From positions 27,173 through 91,172 of IMG/VR virus record IMGVR_UViG_3300031419_000529: DNA of 64,000 nt; one strand, 5' to 3'. How positions within the stretch are numbered: position 1 is the stretch's first letter; each line of letters opens with the position of its first letter. Made by a program: the position numbers and the translations under genes. Source of the stretch: a virus. The notes below the pieces were generated by a model. That model had not been told where the DNA came from. It did no database searches and worked only from the letters and a program-made list of their open reading frames with translations. Of this stretch, positions 15,458 to 32,038 are shown one piece after another.

Positions 15458-16283
15458 CGATAGGCTCCAATTTACGGATAGCTTCGGTTTGAGCTTCTGA
15501 AAGGATGAATTTGGTGCTGACGGTCGCGATCACGGCATCGGCTTTTTTACTGCCGGATTCGATCATCCTTTGCCAGCCAGGGAGGTTTTGATTGAATTTG
15601 TCAGCTGGGTAATGTGGCAACGTCAACGGCGTTTGGGTTTCTTTGTGGGGCGTCACATCCTTGGCGTCGCTGATATCCAAGGATTTACCTTCCATTTCTT
15701 CAGCCGTAGGCTGCTGGCCGATTTCGGGCCATGCTTTGCGTAGTGCCTGCGCTTCGGCGCATTTCGCTAGCTGGCCATAAGGGCGTTTCTTCCACATAGC
15801 GTTCGGCGCGGAGCTATCACGGCCAGCAGTCGCGTAATTCTCCATCCAGTATTCTTTGGCGCTGAATTCGACGATCTTGCCGTCGGGCATACTCTTGCAA
15901 ACGGTGTACTTGCACCAGGCGGGAAAGGTGATTTCAACGCCATTTAGCGTTTTTGTAATGTCGTCACCAAATTCAGGCTCATTTGCACCCGCATAGCTCC
16001 CTGAGCGATCGGCCTGAATGCGATAAAGGCCGATGCCGGGCATCACTACGTCGCGCCATTCGTTTTTGCCTGATTGGGCATCTTTAACGCTCATCGGTAC
16101 CAAGTGAACCGGCTTCATCAGCGGATCCAACTGACGAGCGATGCAATAGCTGACAGCCATGACAACAGAGTCATCCCGCGCGCCGGGATAAATGGAGTTT
16201 TTCAGCGCGTTCCAGGTAGGCTCATCGATCCCCATGGCCGCGACAGATTGTGGCAAAGTGCCTGTTGTTACCATGTTGCTCAT
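15444..16283 (-). CDS. bet: Phage recombination protein Bet (Red-beta)
   Basis: LDPLMKPVHLVP, GIGLYRIQADRSG, MWKKRPYGQLAKCAEAQALRKAWP. Confidence 0.94.
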   Translation of the reverse strand: MSNMVTTGTLPQSVAAMGIDEPTWNALKNSIYPGARDDSVVMAVSYCIARQLDPLMKPVHLVPMSVKDAQSGKNEWRDVVMPGIGLYRIQADRSGSYAGANEPEFGDDITKTLNGVEITFPAWCKYTVCKSMPDGKIVEFSAKEYWMENYATAGRDSSAPNAMWKKRPYGQLAKCAEAQALRKAWPEIGQQPTAEEMEGKSLDISDAKDVTPHKETQTPLTLPHYPADKFNQNLPGWQRMIESGSKKADAVIATVSTKFILSEAQTEAIRKLEPIDANH

Positions 16284-16438
16284 TGGTCAGCCCTCACGGA
16301 GTTACGGATAGATAAGCGGAAAACGCTGAGAACGACGGCGCAGGCTTTCAACGGATGGCGGCGGTGCTTGAATTGGTGAATATTGTGGCTGCCGATCCGG
16401 TGTTGGTACTGGATCTGTTGGATAGGGTTATGGCTCAT
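16280..16438 (-). CDS. Small 52-aa protein coupled to bet (not in ORF track)
   Basis: GGAG SD; MSHNPIQQIQYQHRIGSHNIHQFKHRRHPLKACAVVLSVFRLSIRNSVRADQ; stop overlaps bet ATG (ATGA). Confidence 0.55.
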   Translation of the reverse strand: MSHNPIQQIQYQHRIGSHNIHQFKHRRHPLKACAVVLSVFRLSIRNSVRADQ

Positions 16439-16446
16439 GGTATTCT
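16418..16446 (+). promoter_or_regulatory. Sigma70 promoter for the antisense sRNA
   Basis: TTGGAT-17 bp-TATTCT with extended TGn. Confidence 0.7.
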
Positions 16447-16452
16447 CCGTGT

Positions 16453-16565
16453 TGATCGGGGGTGGTTCCCCGGTCAGCTAGCTGGTGGCCTTTGGTCATT
16501 GGCCAGTCCTTATGATTTGCGGTTTGGTCGCCGCATTTCGGGATAGCCCCGCTTGCGGGGCTTTT
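16453..16565 (+). ncRNA. Candidate multi-target antisense sRNA (three UGGU-loop hairpins plus terminator)
   Basis: Hairpins 16453-16476 (loop UGGU, two G.U pairs valid only on +), 16486-16505 (UUUGGUCAUU), 16518-16535 (UUUGGUCG); terminator AGCCCCG-CUUG-CGGGGCU-UUU. Confidence 0.7.
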
Positions 16566-16578
16566 CTCGTTTATGGGG

Positions 16579-16911
16579 TTAGTGAATTTCGTGCAGTTCC
16601 GGATCATGTGCTGCTTCCAGCTCCATCGCTCGTTCGGCTTTTGCGATCCGTGTAAGGATTTCGGTTTGCACCGAGTAAAGGTATTCCTCCATATCAGGCG
16701 ACTCGGTCAGTGCGACAAGAGGGCGCTTGTCTAACCCCGCGATGTGGCAGCGTTCCGCAATCAGCTTTTGAAACACTGATACCCGCAGGCTTTTCCGCAT
16801 CCCTTCAATACGCGCATCGAGCAGCGTTTTTTCATCAGGATCCGCCGCTAGCGTGCGGTCATACTGCTCTAGCGTCTCCTCAACCATCCGCTGATAGTTA
16901 TAGTCATGCAT
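16579..16911 (-). CDS. Hypothetical phage protein
   Basis: 110-aa ORF, SD AGGT. Confidence 0.7.
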   Translation of the reverse strand: MHDYNYQRMVEETLEQYDRTLAADPDEKTLLDARIEGMRKSLRVSVFQKLIAERCHIAGLDKRPLVALTESPDMEEYLYSVQTEILTRIAKAERAMELEAAHDPELHEIH

Positions 16912-17044
16912 TTATTTACCTAACTTATAATGTTAATTGATATAAATTTAAGTGATACTATTTGCATTAAGGATTTGTTTTCTAGGTGAAAAAACAAATA
17001 ATGGATGTATAATAAAGAAATTAATATTTTAAAGTGATGAAATA

Positions 17045-18424
17045 ATGGACGAGTTAAATATATTAAATAATCTTAATAAATTGCGCAGACTTATTTCTGA
17101 TATAGAGTCTTCAAATGTAGGTAGTAAGAATGACTTGCACTTCGAGGCTAGAGAAAATGTAAAGCAATTGTTAGAGGGGAATGTTTTTATTATTCGTGGA
17201 GCTTTATCCTCTCTCGAATCTAGTAATAAAAGAGTTCTCAAGAATTCTGAGATTGAAGATGTCAAACACACTTTATCGTTTGTGAGTAAAATTTGCTCAG
17301 ATATTAACGATTTAAATGCAAAAAGTCCTTTGTACATAGCCGCTGTAAGAAATAACTTAACTAAAATGGATGAGTTATTAGAGCAAATAAAGCCTATTGT
17401 TAGGTTTTTTGTTACAACAGGCAGTGGGCTAAATGATAGTAGTGCAATGGTCGAGCGAGTTAAAAATACACTAAAAGATGCATCAATTCTCCATCATACA
17501 ATGACGGTAAAACTAGCAAAATTAGATGAGAAAATAGATTCAGCCTCTAAAATAATTGGTGCTTCTTCGGCTAAGTTTGAAAAAATATCAAAAAACTTAG
17601 ATAACCTTGAAGAATCTAATAGCAAATATCAAAAAACAATCTCATTATTGGATTTAGAGTCTGATTTGATTTCTGAAAGGAAAAGTGAGTTAACTGCAGC
17701 ATATGAACTTCTTTCTAGTGTAAAAAAAACATATAGTGAAAATAACGAAACTTTAAAAACTATAGGTGACAACCTATCAAGTTTAGAGAGTAGTGTTAGT
17801 GACATAGAGTCTAGGGCGACAAATGCTAAAAACGATCTTGATAGTAAAACAAGTGAAATTGACTCTATAATTGCACAGGCAGCAGCTGCTTTAGAAACGA
17901 CAACTACTGTATCGGTTGGGACTTTCTTCAAAGAGCAGTATGACATTTCTAAAAACCGCATGTTTATTTGGCCATCTTTTGCACTTGCATTCTTAATTGG
18001 GGCAATATGGATTTGCTATGATACCTTAAGCGATATTCGTCATGGGGTTGTTGATGGTGGAGCTGAACTGCCTTATATAATTGCAAGGTTTTGTATTGCG
18101 CCATTATTCTTATTAGGTGTTTGGTTCTGTACTAATCAGTATATTAAACAAAAAAATATAACTGAAGATTACGCATATAAGAAAGTTTTATCTTTATCAT
18201 TAATTGGCTTCAAGTCCGAGATACAGAAAACTGGCGAGGCCAATACGACAGGATTTATAAAATCACTACTAAAAGAAATCCTTCGCTCTCCTTTGGAAAC
18301 TTTAGATAAAAAGCATTACAAGAGAGAGACAAAACTATTAAAATTAGCGCATGATGAGATGATTTCCAATATGTTTAAAAAAGTGTCTCCGCAAAAGACC
18401 GAAGTTGACGAAGAAAAAAAGTAA
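17045..18424 (+). CDS. AT-rich moron: long coiled coil plus 2 TM helices (candidate defence/exclusion)
   Basis: Opposite strand to operon, low GC, heptads, TM segments IWPSFALAFLIGAIWIC and CIAPLFLLGVWFC; own terminator. Confidence 0.8.
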   Translation: MDELNILNNLNKLRRLISDIESSNVGSKNDLHFEARENVKQLLEGNVFIIRGALSSLESSNKRVLKNSEIEDVKHTLSFVSKICSDINDLNAKSPLYIAAVRNNLTKMDELLEQIKPIVRFFVTTGSGLNDSSAMVERVKNTLKDASILHHTMTVKLAKLDEKIDSASKIIGASSAKFEKISKNLDNLEESNSKYQKTISLLDLESDLISERKSELTAAYELLSSVKKTYSENNETLKTIGDNLSSLESSVSDIESRATNAKNDLDSKTSEIDSIIAQAAAALETTTTVSVGTFFKEQYDISKNRMFIWPSFALAFLIGAIWICYDTLSDIRHGVVDGGAELPYIIARFCIAPLFLLGVWFCTNQYIKQKNITEDYAYKKVLSLSLIGFKSEIQKTGEANTTGFIKSLLKEILRSPLETLDKKHYKRETKLLKLAHDEMISNMFKKVSPQKTEVDEEKK

Positions 18425-18442
18425 CTTAATACTTTTTATCAT

Positions 18443-18474
18443 AAAAAAAGCCACAGCATTGAGCTGTGGCTTTT
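18443..18474. terminator. Bidirectional terminator
   Basis: A7-GCCACAGC-attga-GCTGTGGC-T4. Confidence 0.85.
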
Positions 18475-18486
18475 CTATTAGTGTAA

Positions 18487-18750
18487 TCAAAAGACCCCAT
18501 GGGGTACGCGGCTGCAACCGCGCATTTTCTGGCGGCCGGCGGCGCTGATTTGCCCTGGTGCAAGAAGTTCGCTCTCAACCGTGCGGCGTTTGCGTGGCTT
18601 CGGTGGTGCTGGCATATCCGGCATCGTTTTACAGCGGGTGATCACCAACGTTGTTTTTTCGATACGGTCGCTGCTGCGTTGGATACGCTCTTGAAGTTCA
18701 CGAGCGCGGCGGAGTGTTGCTGATTTTGCTTTTGCTGTAATCATGGTCAT
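18487..18750 (-). CDS. N: Lambda N-like antitermination protein
   Basis: Arg-rich N-term (SATLRRARE); C-term GRQKMRGCSRVP resembles lambda N GRQKIKGKSIP; boxA upstream in pL leader. Confidence 0.7.
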   Translation of the reverse strand: MTMITAKAKSATLRRARELQERIQRSSDRIEKTTLVITRCKTMPDMPAPPKPRKRRTVESELLAPGQISAAGRQKMRGCSRVPHGVF

Positions 18751-18887
18751 TGGTCAGTCCTCGGGTGGTACTTTGTGTCGTGAGCATTTTGGTTATTAAT
18801 GCTTTTTGAATGATTAGGTTACCTGCTTTTTTCCACATCAGGCGAGGTGGTATCTTGGTGTTTCCACACAACCAAGAAGGCAAAACA

Positions 18888-19167
18888 GATGGCATCTTTT
18901 ACTGTTCGTGTTGAACTGAAGAATTCTGATTGGGATACGTACAATAAACTCCATGAAAAAATGAGGTTGTCCGGCTACTCGCGCCAGATTAGGGCGGACA
19001 CAGGAGTTATCTATCAGTTGCCTGATGCGGAGTATGTGGCAGAAAAAACACTTACGGTTGTGCAAGTTCACGGGGAGGTAAAAGCTATAGCGTCATCTCT
19101 CAATAGCGATCCTCATGTGTTTGTCACGGAAGCTGTTCGTTGGTACTGGAACTTAGATCGAGCCTGA
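18888..19167 (+). CDS. GhoS/DUF2622-like protein (likely start 18888)
   Basis: FTVRVEL...YNKLHEKM...GYSRQI...GVIYQLPDAEY; extended -10 TGGTATCTT upstream. Confidence 0.75.
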
Positions 19168-19356
19168 TGCACCGTTGGTTTCGTTTACAGCGTTATCGTT
19201 AGGAAGTTCGACTATGCAAAGCATCAAACCATCTTGATTCATCCGCTTATTCAACTGTTGGAAAACGAAGTTAGGGTTATTTTCCAACAGTTGTCTTAAC
19301 TGCCGTTTATCTTCTTCCGTAGGTTTTTGGCGAGCAGTCTTCTCTGATTCATTCAT
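19153..19356 (-). CDS. Hypothetical protein, first gene of pL operon
   Basis: SD GAGGA; 67 aa. Confidence 0.55.
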   Translation of the reverse strand: MNESEKTARQKPTEEDKRQLRQLLENNPNFVFQQLNKRMNQDGLMLCIVELPNDNAVNETNGASGSI

Positions 19357-19370
19357 AGCAGTTCCTCGTT

Positions 19371-19423
19371 TAGTGGTCTTAGTCCTGCCGCCCCGAAATG
19401 GCAGCGGCAGGGTAAAAACACTA
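19371..19423 (-). promoter_or_regulatory. Long stem in pL leader (RNase III site-like)
   Basis: TAGTG..CCTGCCGC-loop-GCGGCAGG..CACTA; position equals the lambda N leader RIII hairpin. Confidence 0.5.
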
Positions 19424-19507
19424 CAGGCTTAGCGATCAGTGGACATCATCCGACTGAGTTGCGCCGCGACGGGTGCTGGGTACCCTGTGTTGCTGTCGCT
19501 ACCTGTT

Positions 19508-19519
19508 TGTTAAAGAGCA
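19508..19519 (-). promoter_or_regulatory. nutL boxA
   Basis: TGCTCTTTAACA on minus strand just after pL. Confidence 0.85.
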
Positions 19520-19539
19520 ATCCCGGTTGGGATGGCTTT

Positions 19540-19592
19540 AATGTAAGTTTTTCTACAATGAGCGGTCAAGTGATTTTTGTAAGTTTTTCTAC
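19540..19592 (-). promoter_or_regulatory. pL promoter with two OL operators
   Basis: TTGACC-18-TACATT; TGTAAGTTTTTCTAC at 19542 and 19578; same motif at OR. Confidence 0.8.
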
Positions 19593-19626
19593 TTTTCAGG
19601 GCGTGTGAGATCTGAAGGTGGGATGA

Positions 19627-19944
19627 TTAGTTGTGGGAGAACAAGAGATAGGCCACGCTACTAAAACCAATTGCTGTTACAAAATAGTGAGATTTGTCAA
19701 TAACAAAGCTCTTTGTGGAGGGACTGAGTTTTATGAAAGTGGACAAAAATGGGAAGAGTACGAGAGTAATTACAGCACCTACAAATATTGACCATGCAAA
19801 CATGAAGCCGCCAGTTACAAGATCATGAAAAATCCCCTTATTTTCTTCCGAGGCAATAATACAGAGTATTACATAGTAGGTAATGTAAATATATTTAATT
19901 TTATTAGTGTTTTTTATATTATTTATCTTAGAGTTCATCTTCAC
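19627..19944 (-). CDS. Small 3-TM membrane protein in cI operon
   Basis: Hydrophobic segments, AT-rich, overlaps upstream gene. Confidence 0.65.
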   Translation of the reverse strand: MKMNSKINNIKNTNKIKYIYITYYVILCIIASEENKGIFHDLVTGGFMFAWSIFVGAVITLVLFPFLSTFIKLSPSTKSFVIDKSHYFVTAIGFSSVAYLLFSHN

Positions 19945-20323
19945 AAAGCGCCTTGAGCAAGTTAGGAGTCACACTGTTATTAATTCTTTTATTAGCAGAT
20001 AAATAACCTATTATTTGACCTTGCTTAATAATCATGGGAGGGTTACTGGAATAAGCATTGAAAGGTGAATATTGGCTGTATTCACTTCCAAAGGTGCCGT
20101 ATTCATTCCAAATGGAGCTTGAGCTATATTGACTTCCATATGTGCCATATTCATTAAAAATAGAGTCGGAATCGTAGCTATTTGTCACATTACCCAGTTT
20201 GGTGTTTTGAGGGTCCTGCGCGATCAGTACTGCACCGCTTACAACATTGCATAGCTGATTTGCACCGAGTGATGGGAGCGCAAGAGAAAATAAGGCGACC
20301 CCAAGGAAATTTCTTACCATCAC
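19928..20323 (-). CDS. Exported protein with NEYG repeats in cI operon
   Basis: Signal peptide; SIFNEYGTYGSQYS/SIWNEYGTFGSEYS; starts 5 bp after cI stop. Confidence 0.75.
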   Translation of the reverse strand: MMVRNFLGVALFSLALPSLGANQLCNVVSGAVLIAQDPQNTKLGNVTNSYDSDSIFNEYGTYGSQYSSSSIWNEYGTFGSEYSQYSPFNAYSSNPPMIIKQGQIIGYLSANKRINNSVTPNLLKALCEDEL

Positions 20324-20328
20324 AAATC

Positions 20329-21003
20329 CTATATTGGTTTTATATGACAGATTACAGTTCCAATTATACGACAGTTACTATCAAATTTAACAAACCTCAT
20401 TTCTTGAGGGTAGTCAGGGTTTGTTGCCTTTAGATACCCAATGTTGTCTATTAATTGAAATTGCTTAAGTCCAACATTATTAGATGTATTAAATGCTGAT
20501 ATAATATACTGCCCGTTCATTGGAGTGCGAAGTGCTTCATCAACAAAGACTGTGTCGCCCATCTCAAATCGCGGAAGCATGGAATCATCATTAATCTCTA
20601 TCGAAAAAGTATTGTTGCTGCAAGGGACTGGGCAAGGAATATGTTTATCACTTCCTGAGGAAGAAACGGTAGCGCTTTTCGAGTTAACAATAGTTTGCCA
20701 AGTTACATAGGGGACAAGTCGAAGGTCTACCTTGTCACTGAGGGGGGAAGAGCTAATGGCCTTTTCCTCGATAGAACCAACATTGTTTACCAACCACTCC
20801 GCAGAGCACTTGAGCACTTGAATTACTGCCAATAGCACTTTGTCCTTCATGCTTTCTTGGCTGCCATTTTCGATGTTGCTGATCGTTACGCGCGTGAGTT
20901 TCCGCTCGCCTTGCAGCAAGCGATTTATCTCTTTTACGGCCTCCTCTTGAGTCAGACCAAGCTGCTCACGGCGCCATCTAAAACGTTCACCGAGTGTTTT
21001 CAT
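20329..21003 (-). CDS. cI: CI-like repressor (HTH plus S24 domain), lacking the Ala-Gly cleavage site
   Basis: LGLTQEE..TISNIENG HTH; DDSM and GLKQ catalytic motifs; VPYVTWQTIV where VPxxxWVQAG is expected. Confidence 0.92.
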   Translation of the reverse strand: MKTLGERFRWRREQLGLTQEEAVKEINRLLQGERKLTRVTISNIENGSQESMKDKVLLAVIQVLKCSAEWLVNNVGSIEEKAISSSPLSDKVDLRLVPYVTWQTIVNSKSATVSSSGSDKHIPCPVPCSNNTFSIEINDDSMLPRFEMGDTVFVDEALRTPMNGQYIISAFNTSNNVGLKQFQLIDNIGYLKATNPDYPQEMRFVKFDSNCRIIGTVICHIKPI

Positions 21004-21051
21004 ACGTATACGATACGGAAAACTAACGTAGGTTTCATGACGTCAATTTTC

Positions 21052-21080
21052 TTGCTATAAAATGTAGAATAACTTACATT
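21052..21080 (+). promoter_or_regulatory. pR promoter overlapping OR operator
   Basis: TTGCTA-17-TACATT; TGTAGAATAACTTACA is the reverse complement of the OL motif with one mismatch. Confidence 0.8.
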
Positions 21081-21098
21081 TCGAGATTGGAGGTGCCT

Positions 21099-21338
21099 AT
21101 GACTACGACAGGCAAGACGCTGTATCAGATCCTGAAAGAAAAGTACGGGAATGACAATGGCATCGCGAAGGCGTTCAGTGTTGAACGACCAACTGTTTTT
21201 ACCTGGCGGAAAACCACGCCAGAAAAAATCGCTTTGCTTTGCCATATTTCCCCCGAAATCCCATACACCTACAACCCAGCGGACTACGGCCGCAACCCTG
21301 AGAATTTAAGCCTGGTTCTGACCAAACCAGCCTGTTAG
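21099..21338 (+). CDS. cro: Cro-like repressor (start 21099)
   Basis: GGAGG SD; GIAKAFSVERPTVFTWRK HTH; divergent from cI. Confidence 0.85.
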   Translation: MTTTGKTLYQILKEKYGNDNGIAKAFSVERPTVFTWRKTTPEKIALLCHISPEIPYTYNPADYGRNPENLSLVLTKPAC

Positions 21339-21358
21339 CAACGCATAAGGACTGACCA

Positions 21359-21721
21359 ATGACCACAATTTACCAGCCAGGCAATGGAACGGCAGGGGCC
21401 GCGATAGCCTCCGGCGTTCGCCGTGAGCTGCTGTCACGCAAGAAGGTAGGCAAAAACGGCCTACCATTCGCTGCTGTACGCGAAGACCAGATCAAAACGC
21501 GATGGACTGAGAGCGAGGCAGTGACGATCAAAAGTGCTGCCGATGCCATGGCGTCCAACCCCGCAGTTGAAACCAACGTCGCCGCGATCCGGGGCTTTCT
21601 GGCTATGTTCGCTGAAGCCCCTGAGATGTTGGTTCACGTCCACAACGAACTGAAGGCCGCCGGCCTGTCTGTTCCTGAATGGCTGCCACCACTTCCATCA
21701 ACAAAGGAGCTGCCACTATGA
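21359..21721 (+). CDS. cII-position regulator, possibly ribbon-helix-helix
   Basis: Position after cro; IKTRWTESEAVTIKSAADAM RHH-like. Confidence 0.6.
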   Translation: MTTIYQPGNGTAGAAIASGVRRELLSRKKVGKNGLPFAAVREDQIKTRWTESEAVTIKSAADAMASNPAVETNVAAIRGFLAMFAEAPEMLVHVHNELKAAGLSVPEWLPPLPSTKELPL

Positions 21722-21900
21722 GCCAGCAATCAACCACCCAATCCGTAGAACTGATATCCAGCCTCATTGGTAAGAAGCTGGGTATCGCTGGGCATGAAGC
21801 CCGGCGTTTGGCTATCACAGGGATACTGTCAGGGGTAACGCAGGCGTACTACTCACGGGAAAGTGACAAACATGGGGCCTCTGCTTCGAGGTCTGAGTAA
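21718..21900 (+). CDS. Small hypothetical protein
   Basis: AAGGAG SD; ATGA overlap. Confidence 0.6.
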   Translation: MSQQSTTQSVELISSLIGKKLGIAGHEARRLAITGILSGVTQAYYSRESDKHGASASRSE

Positions 21901-22952
21901 TGGCAATTGTCAGAACCAACCGCCAGCGTGGATTCACCATGATCGACAATGCGGCTATCGGCAATAAAACGCTGAGCTGGGCGGCTGAAGGAATGCTGCA
22001 TTATCTGCTGTCCAAGCCTGATGGCTGGTCAGTCAATCCGTCACACCTGTGGCAGGAGAAGAAGGGCGTTCGCGGCTGCGGCCGTGATGCCGTTTACAAG
22101 CTGCTGAACGAACTGATCCAGGTCGGTTTTATTCATCGTTTCCAACTGCGCGATGCCAAGGGTGTGACCGATGGTTTCGATTATTTCGTCTTCGACACGC
22201 CGCAACCGCATCCTGAAATTCAGGAAGTGGATGAACCCCAAGCGCCGCAAGGCTTGGCTCCGAATCCTGAAAATCAGGAAATGGACGAACCACCGTATCC
22301 TGAAAATCCGTATCCTGAAATTCAGGGCATTAGTAAAGACGGATCTGTAGTAAATACTGATCTCTCTCTCTTAGGCGATGCTCAAAATTCAGCCGGTGAT
22401 GAAACACCGCTAAACCCACACCTGAATGCCATTTTGAATAACCGCCCACCGGCGCCACAACCTGCACCGCAATTCGGCATGTTCCCGATGTCGTTCGACT
22501 GGGTACCTGGTGACGACTTTGCGCAAATCGCGCACCTGTCCGGTTTGACCGCGGCGGAATTCACTCCTGAGCTACTGAACGAGTTCCGGATCTTCTGGAA
22601 GCCGACAGGCCGGGTGTATTACCACTCCCAGTGGCAGCAAAAATTTATCAGCTCACTAAAACACGAGCAATTGCGAGGGCAACGCTATGCGCGACCGCAA
22701 CGGGCCGAAGCCGGTAACGGCGGCGGCAATGCAACGGATCGCTTCCAGCAGGGCGTCGCCGCAATACGAGCCGTACAGGAAAAATACGGCTACGGCGGCG
22801 GAACAGAAGACGATTCAGGGGATTGTCTTGACGGTGATTTTGCCCATGTATCCGATCCACTGGCCAACGTGGGTCAGTCGAATGAATACGACGGTACTGA
22901 TGGAGGCATTTGGAACGGAACTGACGCGGGTTCTGTTGCAGGACGCAATTAA
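21900..22952 (+). CDS. Replication initiator (O-like; HTH N-term, DnaT-like domain)
   Basis: LSWAAEGMLHYLLSKPDGW; internal iterons; FPMSFDWVP...EFRIFW...QWQQKF. Confidence 0.85.
   Translation: MAIVRTNRQRGFTMIDNAAIGNKTLSWAAEGMLHYLLSKPDGWSVNPSHLWQEKKGVRGCGRDAVYKLLNELIQVGFIHRFQLRDAKGVTDGFDYFVFDTPQPHPEIQEVDEPQAPQGLAPNPENQEMDEPPYPENPYPEIQGISKDGSVVNTDLSLLGDAQNSAGDETPLNPHLNAILNNRPPAPQPAPQFGMFPMSFDWVPGDDFAQIAHLSGLTAAEFTPELLNEFRIFWKPTGRVYYHSQWQQKFISSLKHEQLRGQRYARPQRAEAGNGGGNATDRFQQGVAAIRAVQEKYGYGGGTEDDSGDCLDGDFAHVSDPLANVGQSNEYDGTDGGIWNGTDAGSVAGRN
22211..22327. repeat. Replication origin iterons (4 x TCCTGAAAWTCMGKR)
   Basis: Copies at 22211, 22265, 22298, 22313 inside the initiator gene. Confidence 0.85.
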
Positions 22953-23442
22953 CCCGGAACAGCTGAACTACGCCATCAGGGCGGCACCGGGACGCAAGTT
23001 TTATCCGTTCCCTGCGCCACCGGACTGGCTGTCCATGGCGAAAGAGCTGATCGACGCCAGACTGCCGACAGTGGATAGCGTGATGGAGGAGTTTGACCGT
23101 TACAGCGCAAGACGGGGCTATTTCGACAGCCCTGAAGAGTTCAGATGGAAAGCGCCGATCTTGTACTGGATTGTCACCGATATGCGCAAGGCTATGCAGC
23201 AGTACAACCATGGCGTTGCTGAGCTGCGAAAAGTGGCAGAGCGGCTGCTCCGTCAGTGGGAAAAGAAACTACAGGATGGGGAGCAAATCCCGGAACCAGC
23301 AATCAGGCTGGGTTACACGGAAACGCCGATAGGTGTTGGAAAAGAACGGGGATTGACCACCCCCGAAACAGAGAAAAAAGGCGCGGCGCTTCTTCAGGCA
23401 ATTCGGCTGAAGGTGGCCCTAGCAAAAACAAGTAAGGACTGA
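22687..23442 (+). CDS. Lambda P-like helicase loader
   Basis: MQRIASS..PQYE, PFPAPPDW, LPTVDSVMEEF, ILYWIVTDMR resemble the P family; GAGG SD. Confidence 0.8.
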   Translation: MRDRNGPKPVTAAAMQRIASSRASPQYEPYRKNTATAAEQKTIQGIVLTVILPMYPIHWPTWVSRMNTTVLMEAFGTELTRVLLQDAINPEQLNYAIRAAPGRKFYPFPAPPDWLSMAKELIDARLPTVDSVMEEFDRYSARRGYFDSPEEFRWKAPILYWIVTDMRKAMQQYNHGVAELRKVAERLLRQWEKKLQDGEQIPEPAIRLGYTETPIGVGKERGLTTPETEKKGAALLQAIRLKVALAKTSKD

Positions 23443-23445
23443 CCA

Positions 23446-24588
23446 ATGACCATTTGTATCAAAAACGCACTGATTTACCGCTTGTCCCGAGGTGTGGATC
23501 TGAGCGGGATGGAAGAGCAACTGGCTGCATTTGCGTTCACGCCATGCGGTAGCCAGGACATGGCAAAAACCGGATGGGTGGCACCAATTGGCGATGCGCT
23601 CGTGCACACCGCCAACGGCCAGCATCTGCTGGTGGTACAGCGCGAAGAGAAACTGCTCCCGCGTGAAGTTATTCAAACCGAGCTGAACGAGAAAGTCGCC
23701 AAACTTGAAGCCGAACAGCATCGGAAACTGAAAAAATCAGAGAAAGACGCTCTCAAAGACGAAGTGCTGCATAGCCTGCTGCCGCGTGCTTTCAGCAAAC
23801 ACCATAAAACACAGATCTGGATTAACGAAGGGGCCGGGTTAATCGTCGTTGACGCCGCCAGTGCCAAACGCGCCGAAGATGCGCTGGCGTTACTGCGCAA
23901 AAGCTTGGGTTCCCTCCCAGTGGTGCCGTTGGCCATGGAAAGCCCGATCGAGCTGACCGTGACCGAATGGGTACGCTCTGGCCAGCCGCCAGCGGGCTTT
24001 ACTCTGCAAGATGAGGCCGAGTTGAAAGCGGTTTTGGAAGAGGGCGGGATCATCCGTTGCAAGAAGCAGGATCTGGTCGGTGATGAAATCGCGTCAAACC
24101 TGCAGGCGGGTAAGTTGGTCACGAAGTTGGCGCTGAGTTGGCAGGATCGAATTGATTTCGTGCTGAGCGATGACGGCACGCTGAAGAAACTGAAATTTAG
24201 CGATGTGCTGCTGGAGCAGAACGACGATATTGATCGGGAGGATTACGCCCAACGCTTTGACGCGGACTTTATTCTGCTGACCGGCGAGCTGGCGGCGTTG
24301 ATTGCCAACCTGGTTGCAGCGCTCGGCGGGGAAGCGAGCCATTCTGCCAATAGCAGCGGTTCAACGGCTAATGAGGATGACGATTCGCTGAATGATGAAC
24401 GTTATCCTGAAGCTGTCCAGTTTGTTCTGGCCAAGGGCAGCGCTTCGATTTCAGGCCTGCAGCGTCAATTCCGCATTGGCTATAACCGCGCTGCGCGGCT
24501 GATAGAGCAGATGGAGGCTGGTGGCGTGCTGTCGGAGCCCGGTGTCGATGGCACACGGACAGTGCTGAGTACAGGGGCCGAGCAATGA
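23446..24588 (+). CDS. rdgC: RdgC fused to an FtsK gamma domain
   Basis: [34 protein letters not shown]; C-term [25 protein letters not shown]. Confidence 0.93.
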
Positions 24589-24932
24589 TGCAGAAACCTC
24601 AAACCTCCGAAAAGGAGCGTAGTTGCATCAACGAGGGGATCCGCAAGCTGCGTAAGGCGGGCCGGTTCGATGAAGCAAATACTCAAATGAACCGGGTTAT
24701 CACGGCAGCCAGCGGTGCTGATTGGCATTCACTGCGCGATCTGGAAAACCTGCTGGCGCAAATGTTCCCTGATGAGGGCGATACCCAGACGGCGATCAGC
24801 GCGCGTCTACGTGAAATCTCTCCGATCCTGCATGGCCTGGTGAAGCAGGTAAGCAAAGTCCGCAACGAAGAATCAGGAAAAACCACCTGGTTCTATCGTC
24901 TTGTGCCTTCTCATCAGGAGGCGCGCCTGTGA
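24585..24932 (+). CDS. Hypothetical wHTH-like phage protein
   Basis: TAISARLRE...TWFYRL. Confidence 0.65.
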
Positions 24933-25594
24933 TCGACTTTTCAAACACGCCTTATGTTCAGGCGCTGGCGGCGCAAAAACTGGCCCCGACACACGAGCTT
25001 AAGGAAATTGGTGACCAGTGGCGCACGCCGGATCCGTTGTTCTGGGGGATCAATGGCATGTTCGGGCCATTTGTGTTGGATCTTTTCAGTGACGGCGAAA
25101 ACAGCAAGTGCGCGGCGTTCTATACAGCCGAAGATAACGCGTTGGTTCAGGACTGGTCAGCGCGTCTGAAAGATCTGAACGGCGCCGCGTTTGCCAATCC
25201 GCCATACAGCACAGCGAAGCAGCATGAGGGTGAATATATCACTGGCATGCGGCACATCATGCGCCATACGAAGGATATGCGGGAGTTCGGCGGGCGTTAT
25301 GTGTTTCTCATCAAATCGGCGACAGCGGAAGTATGGTGGCCGGAGGATGCGGATCACGTTGCGTTTATTCGTGGCCGTATTGGTTTTGACGTGCCGCTTT
25401 GGTACCGGCCGGCGGATGAAAAACAAGAGGCCACCAGTGCCGGTTTCGGCGCGGCTATCGCTCTGTTCGATAAAACATGGCGCGGCCCGGTTTCAAGTTA
25501 TGTCAGCCGTGACCGGCTAACTGCCCAAGGTGATGCTTTCATGGCACAAATTCGCAGGGAAGCTGAGCGATTGTCGGTGAGGAGTGTCGTGTGA
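24929..25594 (+). CDS. dam: Phage DNA N6-adenine methyltransferase
   Basis: DQWRTP, LDLF, NPPYS, RGRIGF. Confidence 0.92.
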   Translation: MIDFSNTPYVQALAAQKLAPTHELKEIGDQWRTPDPLFWGINGMFGPFVLDLFSDGENSKCAAFYTAEDNALVQDWSARLKDLNGAAFANPPYSTAKQHEGEYITGMRHIMRHTKDMREFGGRYVFLIKSATAEVWWPEDADHVAFIRGRIGFDVPLWYRPADEKQEATSAGFGAAIALFDKTWRGPVSSYVSRDRLTAQGDAFMAQIRREAERLSVRSVV

Positions 25595-26241
25595 CGGCTA
25601 CTACCCGGACTAAATCTTCGCGTAAGCACAAGACGGAAGCATTAGGTGTATTGCTACCAGGTGGTGGTATCAAATATGCGACAGATCACGACAGGGACAC
25701 GATGAAAGGGGTGCCTACGGGCACTCCTATCGCCATGCGTCCGATCGGCGACCGCAGGAACCTGAAGCATCACCGCAAATTCTGGAAGCTGCTGGAGTTG
25801 GGTTTTTCGTATTGGGAGCCAGATTGGACGTTCGTTAGCGATCCGGAGAAGTGGATTGCGCATGAGGTGGCGAAGACACTGGCGATACAGGCTGGCGATC
25901 CGCTGCTTTATGACAACATCACAAAGCTGATCGCCGACAGTGTGCTGCAGCGTGTTGCGGCACAACGGCAGCGCCGCTTTGACGCCGAAGCTGTGAAAAC
26001 GACGGAGGCTTATCTCAATCACGTCATGGTTAAAGCCGGTTTCTATGATCTAGCCGCTAACCCGGACGGCGGAACGTTGAAGCAGCGTTGGAGCATCGCT
26101 TTCGTCAACATGAGCCAGGAGAAGTTCGACAAGGTTTATAGCGGCGTCGCCGGCGTCATCTGGAATGAGACACTGCAGCAACACTTTGCCGATGAGTTTG
26201 AGATGGAACAGGCCGTTAATCGGCTGATTGAGTATGCTTAG
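25591..26241 (+). CDS. DUF1367 family protein
   Basis: RNLKHHRKFWKLLELGFSYWEP; SIAFVNMSQEKF. Confidence 0.85.
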   Translation: MTATTRTKSSRKHKTEALGVLLPGGGIKYATDHDRDTMKGVPTGTPIAMRPIGDRRNLKHHRKFWKLLELGFSYWEPDWTFVSDPEKWIAHEVAKTLAIQAGDPLLYDNITKLIADSVLQRVAAQRQRRFDAEAVKTTEAYLNHVMVKAGFYDLAANPDGGTLKQRWSIAFVNMSQEKFDKVYSGVAGVIWNETLQQHFADEFEMEQAVNRLIEYA

Positions 26242-26295
26242 CTGAGTATTTTCATTATAATTTCAACCACACTAACTTAAATAGAGCTGTTAAAA

Positions 26296-27318
26296 ATGCT
26301 TGATGTTCTTTCCTCAGGAAAAATCACTATTGATCTTCAGTTAATCGCTATCATTGTTGGAGTGGTAGTCACGCTGGCTGCATTTTATTTTCGTAAGGGA
26401 CTATCAAAGGTTGAATTATTTGTTTCGAGTAATGAAGTTACCTCTGAGGTTGACGTAAAATCACTTCAAAGAAAGCTCGATGAATTGGTAACCATTGTTG
26501 AAGGGGCGAAGGACGATGGCATCGTAGGGTTATCTGAAAGTGTCCAAAAGCTTAGGGCAAGAGTGTCAGAGCTTGAATTGCCAGGTCTTGATGTTAATTA
26601 TAAAGAAAGAATCGAAGGTGATATTCAGTCTATAGTTGATTCTCTCTTGGAAAATAATCTTGAAAATAATGATGAAATAAACAACAAAATAACCAATGTT
26701 ATCGATGGAATGATAAGTGAGAAGGTGGCTCTCAATGTTGCCGAAAAGGATAAGATTGCACTTGAAAAAGACAAAAACTTGATCTCTTTGATGCTTAATT
26801 CTAAAGATGATTTCGATTCGTTATTACGGCGCGAGTATGATTACTCATTGAGGTATAAAGGTGTTGTTTTGAATTTATTTATAATAATAAATATTGGGTT
26901 GTTGTTTATTGCGTTATTATATACTCTTTCGATTGCTTTATCCACTTCAGTGATAAATAACGGATTCCCAAGGGAACTGGCGCTGACCATTTCAGGTCTA
27001 TATATTGGATTTGCGTCCTTTGTTATATATGTAATAAAATTTTCAAATGCAAGAATTCTTACGATAATTGCATTGAGGGAGGATATGTCAAAAGAGAATG
27101 TTCTATCTCATTATGTAGATGCCTTTTCAAACAAACCAGAATTGAATGAAAATGATGTAGCAGTAATGAGAGTGTTAACAGTAAATCGCGCACAAAGAGA
27201 ACAGAAAACAAATCACCCATATGAAGTAATACTCCAGGGTATTAGTGGCTCAAATATCCAGTTTAAAGGCGGAAGACTGCAAGTGGGCAAAGATAACAAC
27301 AAGAGTGATCGGGATTAA
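26296..27318 (+). CDS. AT-rich membrane protein (N-term TM, coiled coil, 2 TM)
   Basis: Low-GC insertion between DUF1367 and DUF1364. Confidence 0.75.
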   Translation: MLDVLSSGKITIDLQLIAIIVGVVVTLAAFYFRKGLSKVELFVSSNEVTSEVDVKSLQRKLDELVTIVEGAKDDGIVGLSESVQKLRARVSELELPGLDVNYKERIEGDIQSIVDSLLENNLENNDEINNKITNVIDGMISEKVALNVAEKDKIALEKDKNLISLMLNSKDDFDSLLRREYDYSLRYKGVVLNLFIIINIGLLFIALLYTLSIALSTSVINNGFPRELALTISGLYIGFASFVIYVIKFSNARILTIIALREDMSKENVLSHYVDAFSNKPELNENDVAVMRVLTVNRAQREQKTNHPYEVILQGISGSNIQFKGGRLQVGKDNNKSDRD

Positions 27319-27623
27319 TGCGAGCGTACCGAAGCAAGGCTCTGCGCGATTCGGCGCGGGGCCGCTGCTGCACATTGCAGATCCCAGGAATCTGTAATGG
27401 GAACCCAGAAACAACGGTTCTATGCCATCTTCCCAGCAGCACCCAAGGCATGGGGTATAAGAGCGATGATTTTTGGGCGGTGTTTGGATGTTCCTGTTGT
27501 CATGATGTGATTGATGCGAGAAAATCGTATGATTGGGAAAACGGCGAAAAAGAAGAGCTGCTAATTAATGCTCTTTATTTGACATATAAATATTGGCATT
27601 CACTGTCATTATTTAATTATTAA
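27318..27623 (+). CDS. DUF1364 family protein
   Basis: SARGRCCTLQIPGICNGNPETTVLCH...CSCCHDVID. Confidence 0.88.
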   Translation: MRAYRSKALRDSARGRCCTLQIPGICNGNPETTVLCHLPSSTQGMGYKSDDFWAVFGCSCCHDVIDARKSYDWENGEKEELLINALYLTYKYWHSLSLFNY

Positions 27624-27653
27624 TAGTTAATACGTGAATTATTAGGAGATGTA

Positions 27654-28925
27654 GTGACTTCGTACACAGACGATTTTGTTAAGAAAAATATTGATGAGTG
27701 TGACTCGTTTATTCAAATAAAATATAAAGAGTCTGTATTTAATATACAAGGAGATAATGAACTAAACGATAGGGAATTTATTTCCAGCCTAAGTTATGAT
27801 GAGGTTTTTCAAGTGGCTCTTTATTGCGCCTGGTTGGATTTTTTCTCTAAGTTTAGAAATGACGCAGTTCTCCTTGACAAAAACACAATTTTTAACAGAA
27901 AGAAACTAGGCGATAGAGTTTTATTTTCCGCAGATCAAGTAAAGGATGATCCTGTCTTATTCTTGTCAAACTTATTAAGGGTAATAATAGAAGCTAATTT
28001 TTGGGAGGGCTCACCTGGTCTTTTTTATAATAGACGTGATGTTTTGACGATCTTAGCAAGTAATTACGAGAGAAGGGAGTATCAATTCGAATGGATAAGA
28101 GATACTTTGCAGATTTCATTAGCACAGTTCTTACTACATTCCGATGCTTTTAAAATGGCATTGCAACTTGGTTCCAATATAACTGAGCAGTCTAATACTA
28201 TAAAGAATGAGTTAAATAAAGATGTGGGAATACTAATTGGAACTCTAACTTCAGAAAGTGAAAGTATAAAGAAAGATTTCGATACAAAAAAAGAAGAGAT
28301 TTCAGAGTTATTAAACGATAAAGAGAAAGAGTTACGCAATATTTTTGAAGAGATAGACTCTAATGTTAAAGGGATAGATGAGGTTAGAGAAAGATTAAGT
28401 AGTTACCATTCTGAATTTAACTTTGTAGGTCTTTATGCTGGGTTCAAAGAATTAAAGAAAGGTAAAGATGAAGAGCTAGACTCGGCAAAAGGCAGTTATC
28501 ATCTCGCCATGATTATTGCAATAATGTTACCGTTGTTAAGTATAGGGATGCATATATTATTCCCTGGGCTGGTGAATGGAAAAACTTTAGTTGAATGGGT
28601 GTCGTGGGCAGCTCCGTTCGCTGCAATAGAACTTCTTATACTATATTATGCAAGGGTAATTTATTCAGAAGTTAAGTCGTTGAGAACGCAACTTGTACAA
28701 ATAAATTTAAGAGGGGCGTTATGCCAATTCATAGAAGAATATATGAATTATAGAAAGAAAATGAAAAATGAAAAAGGTGAGCTGAATGATGCAGCGTTGG
28801 ATAAATTTGATTCATTAATCTTCAGTACAATACAAATGGATAGCGATAACATTCCTGGGGCTCTGGATGGAGTTAATGCTATTGCTGAGTTGGCGGGAAA
28901 AGTTTTAGCAAAAAGTAAGCCTTAG
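27654..28925 (+). CDS. AT-rich coiled-coil plus 2 TM protein
   Basis: AGGAG SD with GTG start; FNFVGLYAGF, two TM helices, ALCQFIEEY. Confidence 0.78.
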   Translation: MTSYTDDFVKKNIDECDSFIQIKYKESVFNIQGDNELNDREFISSLSYDEVFQVALYCAWLDFFSKFRNDAVLLDKNTIFNRKKLGDRVLFSADQVKDDPVLFLSNLLRVIIEANFWEGSPGLFYNRRDVLTILASNYERREYQFEWIRDTLQISLAQFLLHSDAFKMALQLGSNITEQSNTIKNELNKDVGILIGTLTSESESIKKDFDTKKEEISELLNDKEKELRNIFEEIDSNVKGIDEVRERLSSYHSEFNFVGLYAGFKELKKGKDEELDSAKGSYHLAMIIAIMLPLLSIGMHILFPGLVNGKTLVEWVSWAAPFAAIELLILYYARVIYSEVKSLRTQLVQINLRGALCQFIEEYMNYRKKMKNEKGELNDAALDKFDSLIFSTIQMDSDNIPGALDGVNAIAELAGKVLAKSKP

Positions 28926-28993
28926 ATATAATGAAAATTATGTAGTTTAGATTGTTATTTAATTTATGATAATTTTGATTAACAGGGGGTATA

Positions 28994-30529
28994 ATGAAAA
29001 ATATAGTGGAAATGTCTTTTGAATGGCAGAACGAGAGTAATGGATTTCCAGCGGATAATCTGGATCGGGCCAAATATGCTAGATTCTTAACGGATTTCTT
29101 GGTTGCTAAAGGCAGTGAAAAAAATTATGTTTTGAATGTAAATGCTTCATGGGGCGCTGGGAAAACATGGTTTTTGAGACGTTGGTCTGAAGAGATTAAA
29201 AAGAATTATCCTGTGGTATTTGTTGATGCATGGAAAAGTGACCATTCAAAAGATCCTTTTTTGTCTGTTGTATCTGCAATTTCTAAAGATCTAGAGCCAT
29301 TAATAGATGTGAGATTTAAAGATAGCGCAATAACGAAAAAAAGCTGGCTATTATTAAAAAGTATAGCCCCCGAAATTACAAAAGGAATTGTGAAAAAATA
29401 TTTGAGCTTAGATATTGATGAGGTATCAAAAGCAATTAATAATAATGATGCATCCTCCATTGCTGGTGTGGGCGCCAAAGCAGTTGAGAAATTAATTAAG
29501 TTTCATGATGAAACTAATAGTTCCATTGATGACTTCAAAGAAGCTACATCAAAATATTTGGATTTAATTGTCAATAAATCAGATAAAGAGTTACCTCTGT
29601 TTGTTTTCATAGATGAATTAGACAGGTGCAGGCCAACTTATGCAATAGAAATGCTTGAAACAATAAAGCATATATTTGATATGGAGAACGTGGTTTTTGT
29701 TATTGCTACTGATAAAGATCAGCTGCAACACTCAATAAAAGCTGTATATGGAAGTGGATTTAACTCAACAAAATATTTGGATCGTTTTTTTGATAGATCA
29801 GTTACTTTGAGAAAAACCTCGCTCTTTGACTACATAAGTAACATGATTTCAAATAGTAATATTTTAACCGATTATTTTAGCAGGTCAGATTGTAGTTGGA
29901 TGATACCAGTTAATAATTTGGATCAAATTTCTGATAGGGTTGAATGGCTTTCAGCAATGTCACAATGTTTTTATATGGATTTAAGAACGACAAAACAATG
30001 GATTGAGCGATTGGAAGCATCAATATTATCCTCGGGTGATCGTATTGATTTTATATTTCTTTCATATTTACTGGCATTAAATAGTGTTAATGGAATCACA
30101 TATGCAAATGTTGCTAACACAACATCAATTATGGGGGCTGACTTCAAAGGTAAATACATTTCTGAATTGTATCGTGACATTGTAAATCCAGATGTTAAAC
30201 TGAATTTTTCTTTTGATTGCTCTGTTTTAGGTGATAAATTAAACATTAAAAACTCAAGTTCATACACCAGAAACCCATTTAAAATCGTAAATTTTTCGTT
30301 AGGTGTTCATGAGTTGTTTTTCAGTCTCCACTGTTGTGTGAATACAATCGACCCACAGAGGGTAATTGATGAGCAATGCTTTTCTTTATCTCAACGCTTA
30401 ATGGAAGGTGGTCAAGATACAAGGATGATTGATATAGGATTGATGCAAGCTGTCATAATGAGGAATAATAATGGGGTGAGTTTCCATGATTATATAGATA
30501 TAGTAGAGCTAGCAATGATATTAGAATGA
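28994..30529 (+). CDS. KAP-family P-loop NTPase
   Basis: NASWGAGKT Walker A; FIDELDRCRPTYAIEMLETIKHIF; YLDRFFD. Confidence 0.92.
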   Translation: MKNIVEMSFEWQNESNGFPADNLDRAKYARFLTDFLVAKGSEKNYVLNVNASWGAGKTWFLRRWSEEIKKNYPVVFVDAWKSDHSKDPFLSVVSAISKDLEPLIDVRFKDSAITKKSWLLLKSIAPEITKGIVKKYLSLDIDEVSKAINNNDASSIAGVGAKAVEKLIKFHDETNSSIDDFKEATSKYLDLIVNKSDKELPLFVFIDELDRCRPTYAIEMLETIKHIFDMENVVFVIATDKDQLQHSIKAVYGSGFNSTKYLDRFFDRSVTLRKTSLFDYISNMISNSNILTDYFSRSDCSWMIPVNNLDQISDRVEWLSAMSQCFYMDLRTTKQWIERLEASILSSGDRIDFIFLSYLLALNSVNGITYANVANTTSIMGADFKGKYISELYRDIVNPDVKLNFSFDCSVLGDKLNIKNSSSYTRNPFKIVNFSLGVHELFFSLHCCVNTIDPQRVIDEQCFSLSQRLMEGGQDTRMIDIGLMQAVIMRNNNGVSFHDYIDIVELAMILE

Positions 30530-30552
30530 GAAACATTAATAAGGACTGACCA

Positions 30553-31365
30553 ATGACCAACGTAATAGAACAACTTATAAAAATGCACGATCCGCGCTGT
30601 GTAAGCGCGGAGTCAATGAATGTAGGCCGCGGGCGAGCTTCCCTGACCAGGGAGCAAATTCTCGGAGCATTCGCAGCCGCGCAGCACCAGCACTCAGTTG
30701 GCCTCGACCTGCTGATGACTAAGTACCGCAGCGACTTCAAGGCGGAGCAGCGGCTACGTGCAGCGATCAATGAATGGGTACATCAACGCCCGCATCCCGA
30801 ACGCGCGGCTGCTGCATGTCAGTTAGCCCTGAGTATTGTGCTTGAGCGTAACCTGCCGGCACAGATATCACACCTCGCGTCATTATTACGCAGGTATGGC
30901 CCACGTACTGCTCAAACCCGAAAGAACATTGAGGCGCTGCAGTCAGAGATTAAGGCTTTAGACAAGCGCCGATGCCAGGTGCAAATCAGCGATACTGTTT
31001 ACGTTGAGGCTGGATTAGAAATTACCGATTTGAATACACGGATTGAGCGGGAACGTGCAGCATTGCGCGCCTGGTCTGAACGCCACGCAGCCACAACCAA
31101 TATTTGCCCACGATGCTCAGGCACTGGCCGTACTGTTAGACCGCACCCGGTAGAGTGCGAAGAGTGTGGTGGTAAAGGTAAGATACCCGCCAATATGGAA
31201 CACTTGCGTAACTCTATGCGTATCATAGGGGCCGAGGTAGCTCCCGGGAAGTGGGTTACTGAATATATCTCATTGGTTGGAGCTTGTATCAACTGGCTGT
31301 ATTGTAAAGAGGAGCAAGCAGGTAAGTGCATAAAAAACAGGATTATAAGCGAATTATACGACTGA
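30553..31365 (+). CDS. Q: Q-like late antiterminator (TIGR02642-type zinc finger)
   Basis: LIKMHDPRCVS N-term; CPRCSGTG..CEECGGKG; just upstream of lysis. Confidence 0.75.
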   Translation: MTNVIEQLIKMHDPRCVSAESMNVGRGRASLTREQILGAFAAAQHQHSVGLDLLMTKYRSDFKAEQRLRAAINEWVHQRPHPERAAAACQLALSIVLERNLPAQISHLASLLRRYGPRTAQTRKNIEALQSEIKALDKRRCQVQISDTVYVEAGLEITDLNTRIERERAALRAWSERHAATTNICPRCSGTGRTVRPHPVECEECGGKGKIPANMEHLRNSMRIIGAEVAPGKWVTEYISLVGACINWLYCKEEQAGKCIKNRIISELYD

Positions 31366-31431
31366 GTGTTATGGTACCATTAGTGTACTGAGATTTTTTA
31401 GGATTAAGAAAATCAATCAAAAGGGGAAATA

Positions 31432-31926
31432 ATGAGCAATCCTGCACTAGCGTTAATAAATTGGATCGAGGGATTCCCTTTGGAAACCCAGGACGAAATT
31501 ACTTTTTTGGTATGCGCATCTCACCCCAGTTTCAGCGCCGATATTGACAACATCTTTAAGTCTAAAGAGTATTCGTCAAAAATCCTTGAACTTTTAAAGG
31601 GTTCCACTAGTGGTGATTTTAAAGATATTGGAGTAATTGTCTCATTTCGTGCGCTGTTCGATTATTTTTTCTTGGCAAAACGCGGAACTAAAGAAGGATG
31701 GGATGAGACGGTTAAGCTATTTGACAGCGTAATCAATGACCCATCTGAGAAACCTGCTGGTGTTGTTGAGCAAGCTAAAGAAATGAAAGATAAGGTGCCA
31801 GAAAGAATGGCGCAATGGATTGCGATATGTGATTCATGGAAGCAACTTAAACTAACATCGCTCTCAGATGATGAAATTGAACAGTGGCATAACGCTCAAG
31901 CTTTCTCGACCTATAAGCCTGTTTGA
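31432..31926 (+). CDS. Hypothetical accessory protein between Q and lysis
   Basis: 164 aa, AGGGG SD, lower GC. Confidence 0.75.
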   Translation: MSNPALALINWIEGFPLETQDEITFLVCASHPSFSADIDNIFKSKEYSSKILELLKGSTSGDFKDIGVIVSFRALFDYFFLAKRGTKEGWDETVKLFDSVINDPSEKPAGVVEQAKEMKDKVPERMAQWIAICDSWKQLKLTSLSDDEIEQWHNAQAFSTYKPV

Positions 31927-31952
31927 TATTACCAATTCATCGATGTTAGGAG

Positions 31953-32025: not shown

Positions 32026-32038
32026 ATTGGTCAGTCCT

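Follow-up and report, generated by a model that had tools for sequence, protein, structure and literature searches.

A repeated translation-start block in a lambda-like provirus and predicted structured antisense RNAs that could pair with it

The window analysed here (the whole stretch of 64,000 nucleotides, positions 27,173 to 91,172 of the IMG/VR virus record IMGVR_UViG_3300031419_000529) is part of a 91-kb lambda-like provirus, in which five genes begin within copies of one 20-base block. The block, TAAGGACTGACCAATGACCA, occurs exactly at 21346–21365, 23433–23452 and 30540–30559, all on the plus strand, and near-copies lie on the minus strand at 18744–18763 (two mismatches) and 16277–16296 (three mismatches). 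At all five gene-start copies a long open reading frame (ORF) is opened by the ATG inside the block. The block is made up of the Shine–Dalgarno (SD) sequence TAAGGA, a 7-base spacer and ATG ACC A, and it holds stop codons in all three frames: TAA at positions 1–3, TGA at 8–10 and TGA at 15–17. The flanks are unrelated between copies and the limits of the 20 bases are correspondingly sharp. The number of copies expected by chance was 0 (100 dinucleotide shuffles), and all block copies in the window are confined to 16277–32038. Two partial matches, at 54103 and 21764, were set aside; the former has no SD. A preliminary description of this DNA had reported an identical motif at the starts of the cII-position gene, rdgC and Q, with variants at N and bet. 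Exact copies are indeed present at the first three starts and variants at the other two, where the gene called bet encodes a RecT-family protein. The Met-Thr starts that it ascribed to the motif are found in four of the five genes; RecT begins Met-Ser.

On the minus strand, the copy with three mismatches (16277–16296) provides the ATG of the gene for the recombinase (15444–16283), which belongs to the RecT family (PF03837) and is not Bet; the 52-amino-acid ORF upstream of it ends at the TGA of an ATGA overlap. The copy with two mismatches (18744–18763) provides the ATG of an arginine-rich 87-amino-acid gene at the N position (18487–18750). On the plus strand, the exact block at 21346–21365, 7 bases past the cro stop, starts the 120-amino-acid cII-position gene (21359–21721). 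The exact block at 23433–23452 starts a gene for RdgC with a C-terminal fused FtsK-gamma domain (23446–24588), and the P-like loader gene upstream of it stops at the TGA of block positions 8–10. The third exact block (30540–30559) starts the gene of a Q-like antiterminator (30553–31365). The N and cII-position proteins are named from position only: no family was matched by the former and no Pfam or PHROG family by the latter. For the cII-position protein, ESM Atlas returned weak ribbon-helix-helix leads (NikA/TacA/MobC-like), and it may be a small DNA-binding regulator. In the flanking minus-strand segment (12664–15457) the recombination module, RecT with a RecE-like exonuclease, is followed by a PmgS-like gene.

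A sixth copy of the block, with one mismatch (G at position 10), lies at 16493–16512 on the minus strand, where it is not a gene start; it is instead the template of the anti-block of a predicted small RNA of about 120 nucleotides (16453–16571, plus strand). This RNA would be antisense to the pL operon, between a 110-amino-acid ORF and the 52-amino-acid ORF/RecT pair. Some 130 bases around the sixth copy form a conserved unit in relatives, and changes in its stems are compensatory. In the RNA, hairpins 1 and 2 come first, then a single-stranded anti-SD stretch, hairpin 3 and finally the intrinsic terminator. The anti-block is complementary to all of the block; hairpin 2 takes up its 5' half, and its anti-SD portion is unpaired. 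Three hairpin loops repeat UUGGUC, the complement of the invariant GACCAA of the block. The terminator (16545–16562, with a U tail) is the best intrinsic terminator of the region and faces the plus strand. A leader peptide encoded behind the sixth copy was considered and rejected: the ORF has 23, 6–8 or 0 codons in relatives, its length thus varying from 6 to 23 codons where present, and in the Yersinia type its ATG is replaced by ATA.

The consensus fold of the small RNA reaches −48 to −50 kcal/mol on the plus strand vs −24 on the minus strand, and many of its pairs are G-U on the plus strand only; together with the direction of the terminator, these observations assign the RNA to the plus strand. 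Among 18 distinct sequences, in an alignment that was fitted to the model, 98% of cells were paired and double changes were found in 21 of 38 pairs; none of 500 shuffles equalled the real values, and slid controls gave 3–7 pairs. Judged by this covariation, the antisense small RNA gene is real. A putative promoter lies at 16418–16446 on the plus strand (TTGGAT, 17 bases, TATTCT, with TG one base before the second hexamer), and a TA...T hexamer stands at a constant distance from hairpin 1 in every lineage. The conservation of this promoter is ambiguous, because it overlaps the SD and start of the 52-amino-acid ORF on the opposite strand. No Rfam family matched 16453–16571, nor the leader at 31953–32071 described below, at E values up to 5, the C4 family included.

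Searches with a covariance model of the small RNA (R1) gave exactly one match in 31 of 34 block-bearing records, and R1 was present in all 31 records with several block copies and an intact pL side. None of the three records lacking a match is informative, as one ends before the pL-distal region and two hold a single chance copy. Among 151 sampled Yersiniaceae genomes four contained R1; clustered block copies are listed for three of them (G035, G138 and G163), and for the fourth (G034) only copy totals are listed. Weak R1 matches in three further genomes (G305, G160 and G107) consisted mostly of the terminator and were left unused. The preliminary description had proposed looking for phages that keep the motif and lack the antisense copy; no such case was found among the block-bearing records.

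A second antisense copy lies downstream of Q and a moron, before the first late ORF, in a late-promoter leader (31953–32071, plus strand). The leader begins with a late promoter-like site (31953–31981; TTGCTT, 17 bases, TAAATT), followed by a hairpin with a U run (31992–32025), a predicted unpaired seed of 13 bases (32026–32038) that is the complement of block positions 3–15, and a second terminator (32040–32071). The layout and the seed are kept in 12 fetched relatives, with altered stems. The antisense copy of the late leader was found neither in the Yersinia type (14-mer search) nor in the type X loci introduced below (9-mer search), which makes the small RNA the constant partner of the block.

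An exact 19-mer of the block was found in 41 IMG/VR stretches, and in clusters in genomes of Serratia, Yersinia, Pectobacterium and Brenneria; lone 19-mer matches in unrelated phyla are consistent with chance. Related records contain 5–9 copies of a 14-base core each (reversed control, 0–1), and the early region is where these copies cluster. Counting the 14-mer over whole genomes with one mismatch allowed proved too noisy (background 0–4 per genome) and was discarded; an apparent excess in genome G152 consisted of scattered chance matches. In a cultured phage collection no match was obtained for the 16-kb early region, the cII-position protein, the small RNA or the late leader.

The association with particular genes was assessed on orthologs in loci already fetched (about 30 prophages of the four genera), which were searched by protein homology and not by motif. 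At unique starts, the block with at most three mismatches was present in 22/22 N-like, 24/24 cII-position and 18/18 RdgC genes. RecT and Q orthologs carry the block, or the block with a spacer longer or shorter by 1–2 bases, down to about 50% protein identity. For seven neighbouring gene families (cro, the O-like gene, the 52- and 110-amino-acid ORFs and three nin-region ORFs) it was present in 0 of 7–15 orthologs each in the same loci. Altogether, about 31 protein families bear the block somewhere, excisionase-like genes among them. At either edge of the block, information content falls from close to 2 bits to around 0, the values inside the block being inflated by motif-based selection. The spacer and codon 2 are conserved to the same degree as SD and ATG; translation alone does not demand this fixation, which was therefore counted for a pairing site.

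At the Q start of G138, a divergent Yersiniaceae prophage (locus L074, about 4200–4250, minus strand), the block has a spacer longer by two bases, and ATTGGTCAT about 15 bases upstream could pair with ATGACCAA of the same start; it would be a built-in, intramolecular anti-block. Another local feature belongs to the cII-position target of the window. At the end of cro (21313–21331), upstream of the block, lies a small hairpin (CTGGTT / AACCAG) whose loop and 3' side, TGACCAAACC, are complementary to the hairpin-3 loop of the small RNA, and as far as complementarity can tell it is a possible second contact point for this target alone.

Seed and block have changed together between lineages. In G138 one substitution, G9 to A, recurs at five sites: in the RNA gene and in the late leader, and at three gene starts (N-like, cII-position and RdgC). 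In G225, another lambdoid prophage, a distant homolog of the small RNA (33 bits) lies between RdgC and an excisionase-like gene; its anti-block differs from the canonical one at many positions and matches the starts of the excisionase-like gene and of a 68-amino-acid gene 4 kb away in the other operon. A further lineage, type X, comprises 12 loci that were found by searching with the hairpin-3 loop and terminator foot of the small RNA. Its RNA is homologous (41–54 bits) and syntenic and has two different seeds side by side in the unpaired stretch; no match to it was found in the cultured phage collection or in complete E. coli genomes. Canonical block copies number 0 in type X loci vs 170 in canonical loci. 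Type X starts instead carry two other blocks. Block A (AGGTTAGCA, 0–6 bases, ATG) occurs 37 times at type X starts vs 0 in canonical loci and tags RdgC and several pL-operon genes; block B (CACGAGATA, a few bases, ATG) occurs 11 times vs 1 and tags the cII-position gene and excisionase. Each of the two blocks is complementary to one seed of the type X RNA, and the target starts lie kilobases away in both operons. Across the type X and canonical lineages, then, tags fall on the same kinds of genes but differ in sequence, and each matches the local RNA. This switch of tag and seed is the comparative equivalent of a compensatory-mutation experiment. It also answers the question, raised in the preliminary description, of whether substitutions co-vary with the small RNA: in type X, seed and block changed together on unlinked genes. 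With the canonical block, the type X A and B blocks and the G225 block there are at least three tag/seed classes. In type X, the FtsK-gamma (KOPS-reading) fusion to RdgC recurs and the same PmgS-like gene again follows the exonuclease; the RdgC of G225 is plain (304 amino acids).

Cofolding was evaluated as net gain, after the cost of unfolding. The five tagged starts gave −14 to −29 kcal/mol with the small RNA and −18 to −24 kcal/mol with the leader; 15 untagged starts gave 0 to −12 kcal/mol over both RNAs. The start of the 52-amino-acid ORF, a sixteenth untagged start to which the small RNA is antisense, gave −22 kcal/mol with the small RNA.

From these comparisons we regard an RNA-controlled translation regulon as the best reading of the locus and consider it quite probable. 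The block would be a portable translation-initiation cassette tagging defined early genes, in the window the N-position, cII-position, RdgC, RecT and Q genes and in relatives also excisionase-like and other genes, and it would be kept identical because it is the pairing site of the phage's antisense RNAs. The constant partner would be the structured RNA of about 120 nucleotides, transcribed from a promoter of its own and antisense to the pL operon, and in many relatives the short late-promoter leader, with its seed at 32026–32038, would be a second. Pairing over SD and start codon would block ribosome loading and so repress translation. As both RNAs could be made while pL and pR are repressed, they would, in a lysogen, silence leaky or incoming messages for antiterminator, excision and recombination genes. 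After induction, strong transcription from pL across the RNA gene would yield a fully complementary transcript and collide with the small RNA's promoter, so relieving the repression. What is read directly from the compared sequences is the cassette with its gene-specific conservation, the structure and strand of the RNA, its co-occurrence with the block and the joint change of seed and cassette; that the small RNA is expressed, and with what sign and timing it regulates, we infer. The post-transcriptional regulon with an antisense RNA that had been put forward earlier thus receives strong comparative support from covariation, from the 31 records and from the sister lineage, and one of its arguments falls away. 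The A-to-G changes within the variants had been taken as a sign that G.U pairing is kept, and the count of substitutions per site fails to support this. Over the 31 gene families, pairing-keeping transitions amount to 2.8 per A/C site vs 4.7 pairing-breaking ones per G/T site, so that pairing-preserving changes are not in excess and a G.U wobble bias was rejected; a TAA-to-TGA change, moreover, also keeps the stop codon.

This count is one of several observations that weigh against control by RNA pairing. In the window, the RNA has C opposite block position 10, giving an A.C mismatch with every target, and at the cII-position start of several relatives G9A occurs with no matching change in the RNA, so the fit between RNA and targets is not exact at every position. 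Hairpin 2, whose stem is itself kept by compensatory changes, sequesters half of the anti-block. The promoter of the small RNA is a consensus match only and overlaps a start site on the opposite strand. The UUUGGUCG loop is kept in every lineage of the small RNA, and in type X it is also the terminator loop (e.g. L107:7673–7810, minus strand); it stays constant there although the type X tags have no GACCAA, for which the model gives no explanation, and this constancy suggests, on comparative grounds, a constant partner other than the tag. Finally, there are only four to five independent lineages with closely related sequences within each, and gene conversion between copies (concerted evolution) could mimic joint change.

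Three other explanations were weighed. The block might be primarily a module linker for homologous recombination, the antisense RNAs being incidental, and the phage does possess RecT and a RecE-like exonuclease with which to swap modules at short shared joints. Three-frame stops followed by SD and ATG guarantee a working joint, and in 38 of 112 unique starts one of the block stops ends the upstream ORF; a shared unit of stop, SD and start that works in any frame is an ideal place for a crossover, and about 31 protein families bear it. The cII-position block is the most frequent homology breakpoint of the region. Of 263 internal BLAST segment ends, 43 are no more than 30 bases from one of the six block sites (7.2 per site), and 33 fall at 22 other gene starts (1.5 per site), an enrichment to which the choice of loci, made through the block, itself contributes; the breakpoints fall exactly at block positions 0–2, the 5' edge. 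As a description, the module-exchange boundary offered earlier as an alternative is therefore true. A linker, however, needs identity between phages at one joint and not among the many joints of one genome, where direct and inverted 20-base repeats beside a recombinase are a liability. It leaves two structured antisense copies and the seed-matched tags of the other lineage unexplained, and the fixed gene membership across orthologs fits regulation better. We hold a primary linker function to be improbable; since the cassette is shared and carries stops in three frames, mosaic breakpoints collect at its edge, and a role as recombination joint is better seen as a consequence of enforced identity, possibly as a second benefit, than as a rival to RNA control.

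The second explanation takes the block as a binding site, either for a protein (a translational repressor like RegA of T4, or a host factor) or for the 3' tail of 16S rRNA through a long match that boosts ribosome capture. A tandem TGACCA-A-TGACCA in the block could suit a dimer, the constant loops of the small RNA could reflect some partner that is not the cassette, and the spacer beyond TAAGGA resembles the complement of the 16S tail at 7 of 8 bases in order (P about 0.045 against random 8-mers). No candidate protein was found, the cII-position protein offering weak ribbon-helix-helix leads only, and a protein site predicts neither complementary copies in two RNAs nor seeds that change with the cassette. 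The resemblance to 16S rRNA is marginal, and extended pairing with its tail was rejected as sterically implausible as well: initiation geometry is such that pairing of the full spacer with 16S rRNA hinders placement of the ATG in the P site. A binding site of either kind has, in our judgement, little chance of being the answer. Aligned with the host 16S 3' end (L093:1490–1515), block positions 1–14 share TGA and CCAA in order, and the anti-block of the small RNA is somewhat like that 3' end. The third explanation accepts the small RNA as real and confines it to cis action on the pL transcript that it overlaps, like P22 sas or lambda OOP, its likeness to gene starts stemming from a copied cassette and gene conversion. 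Its position just upstream of the 52-amino-acid ORF/RecT pair in the pL operon, like that of P22 sas (PMC12197685), the partly base-paired anti-block in hairpin 2 and the imperfect position-by-position match to the targets would all agree with this. It does not account for the independent second antisense copy in the late leader, nor for a type X RNA with two adjacent unpaired seeds, each for a different class of distant starts in both operons, and three hairpin loops repeating the complement of the block core are hard to expect of a passive relic. Purely local action therefore seems to us unlikely.

Should control by RNA pairing apply, a post-transcriptional layer would be added to the lambdoid lysis-lysogeny circuit, exclusion of relatives by prophages would be sequence-programmable, and the precision of some mosaic joints would be explained. 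To our knowledge, the antisense RNAs of temperate phages are one-RNA, one-target devices; here a set of switch genes is apparently wired to one RNA through an identical start tag. More tentatively, and with considerable doubt, the cassette/seed pairs could be interchangeable classes that give specificity to a second, RNA-based immunity system. In that event, the RNA of a lysogen would silence antiterminator, excision and recombination messages of its own prophage and of incoming relatives with the same tag, whatever their repressor immunity, and a phage could escape by switching tag and seed together. A tag and seed that are short and portable would also suit a compact, orthogonal tool for multi-gene repression.

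A literature search with four sub-strings of the block or its complement found no paper containing any of them. Among known elements, the closest counterpart to the tag is found in Cluster K mycobacteriophages: the Start-Associated Sequence (SAS) described by Pope et al. in 2011, a 13 bp sequence (GGGATAGGAGCCC) present in 11–19 copies at the position of the ribosome-binding site, a few bases before the ATG and with the SD core included (PMC3203893). SAS are confined to non-structural genes of different families, their positions unable to pair with 16S rRNA are conserved, and in Cluster K genomes a single further copy, in reverse orientation, does not stand at a gene start (PMC3203893). Like SAS, the block is a short asymmetric repeat at the ribosome-binding sites of many gene families (about 31), in the early, non-structural region only. 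It is an analogue and not a member: sequence, host phylum and phage type differ, the ATG lies inside the block whereas SAS contain no start codon, and the block has a predicted structured antisense RNA whose seed changes with the cassette, while no partner of SAS is known. The same logic could explain SAS, which have been without a partner since 2011, and offers a testable model for them.

Among phage antisense RNAs, c4 of P1/P7 is structured, and complements in its loops pair with a ribosome-binding region and block translation, sequence differences defining immunity specificity (PMC12197685). The small RNA likewise has, in silico, unpaired and loop sequences complementary to ribosome-binding regions of phage messages. 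It differs in lying opposite the pL operon with its own terminator and promoter-like site, where c4 is processed out of its target's own transcript and controls a single operon leader (icd-ant), in having at least five unlinked tagged genes in two divergent operons, and in giving no match to the C4 covariance model in Rfam. The CI RNA of P4 is reportedly related to c4. The late leader resembles the pR' leader RNAs, lambda 6S and StxS of Stx phages, which are short terminated transcripts of the constitutive late promoter downstream of Q acting as regulatory RNA in lysogens (PMC7547250). Shared features are a promoter-like site downstream of Q and two U-run hairpins before the late genes, an arrangement present in 12 relatives; StxS targets stx1 and host rpoS, in contrast to a leader seed that is complementary to the phage's own early-gene cassette. 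P22 sar and sas (the latter in the pL operon), lambda OOP and aQ, like the RNA predicted here, are small lambdoid antisense RNAs; they repress the translation or stability of regulators, but each has one overlapped or adjoining target and none has a repeated multi-gene cassette. STnc6030 of the Salmonella prophage BTP1 is similar as an RNA of the lysogen that pairs with phage mRNA and excludes superinfecting relatives while leaving induction unblocked; unlike the small RNA, it is a 786-nucleotide cis-antisense RNA against one structural gene, with no start-site cassette. None of the compared systems joins a repeated multi-gene start tag with a cognate RNA of swapped specificity. The predicted RNA of the present prophages, in turn, has sequence-level marks of a trans-acting small RNA, being structured, with its own intrinsic terminator and an accessible seed, and its seed and targets co-vary between lineages.

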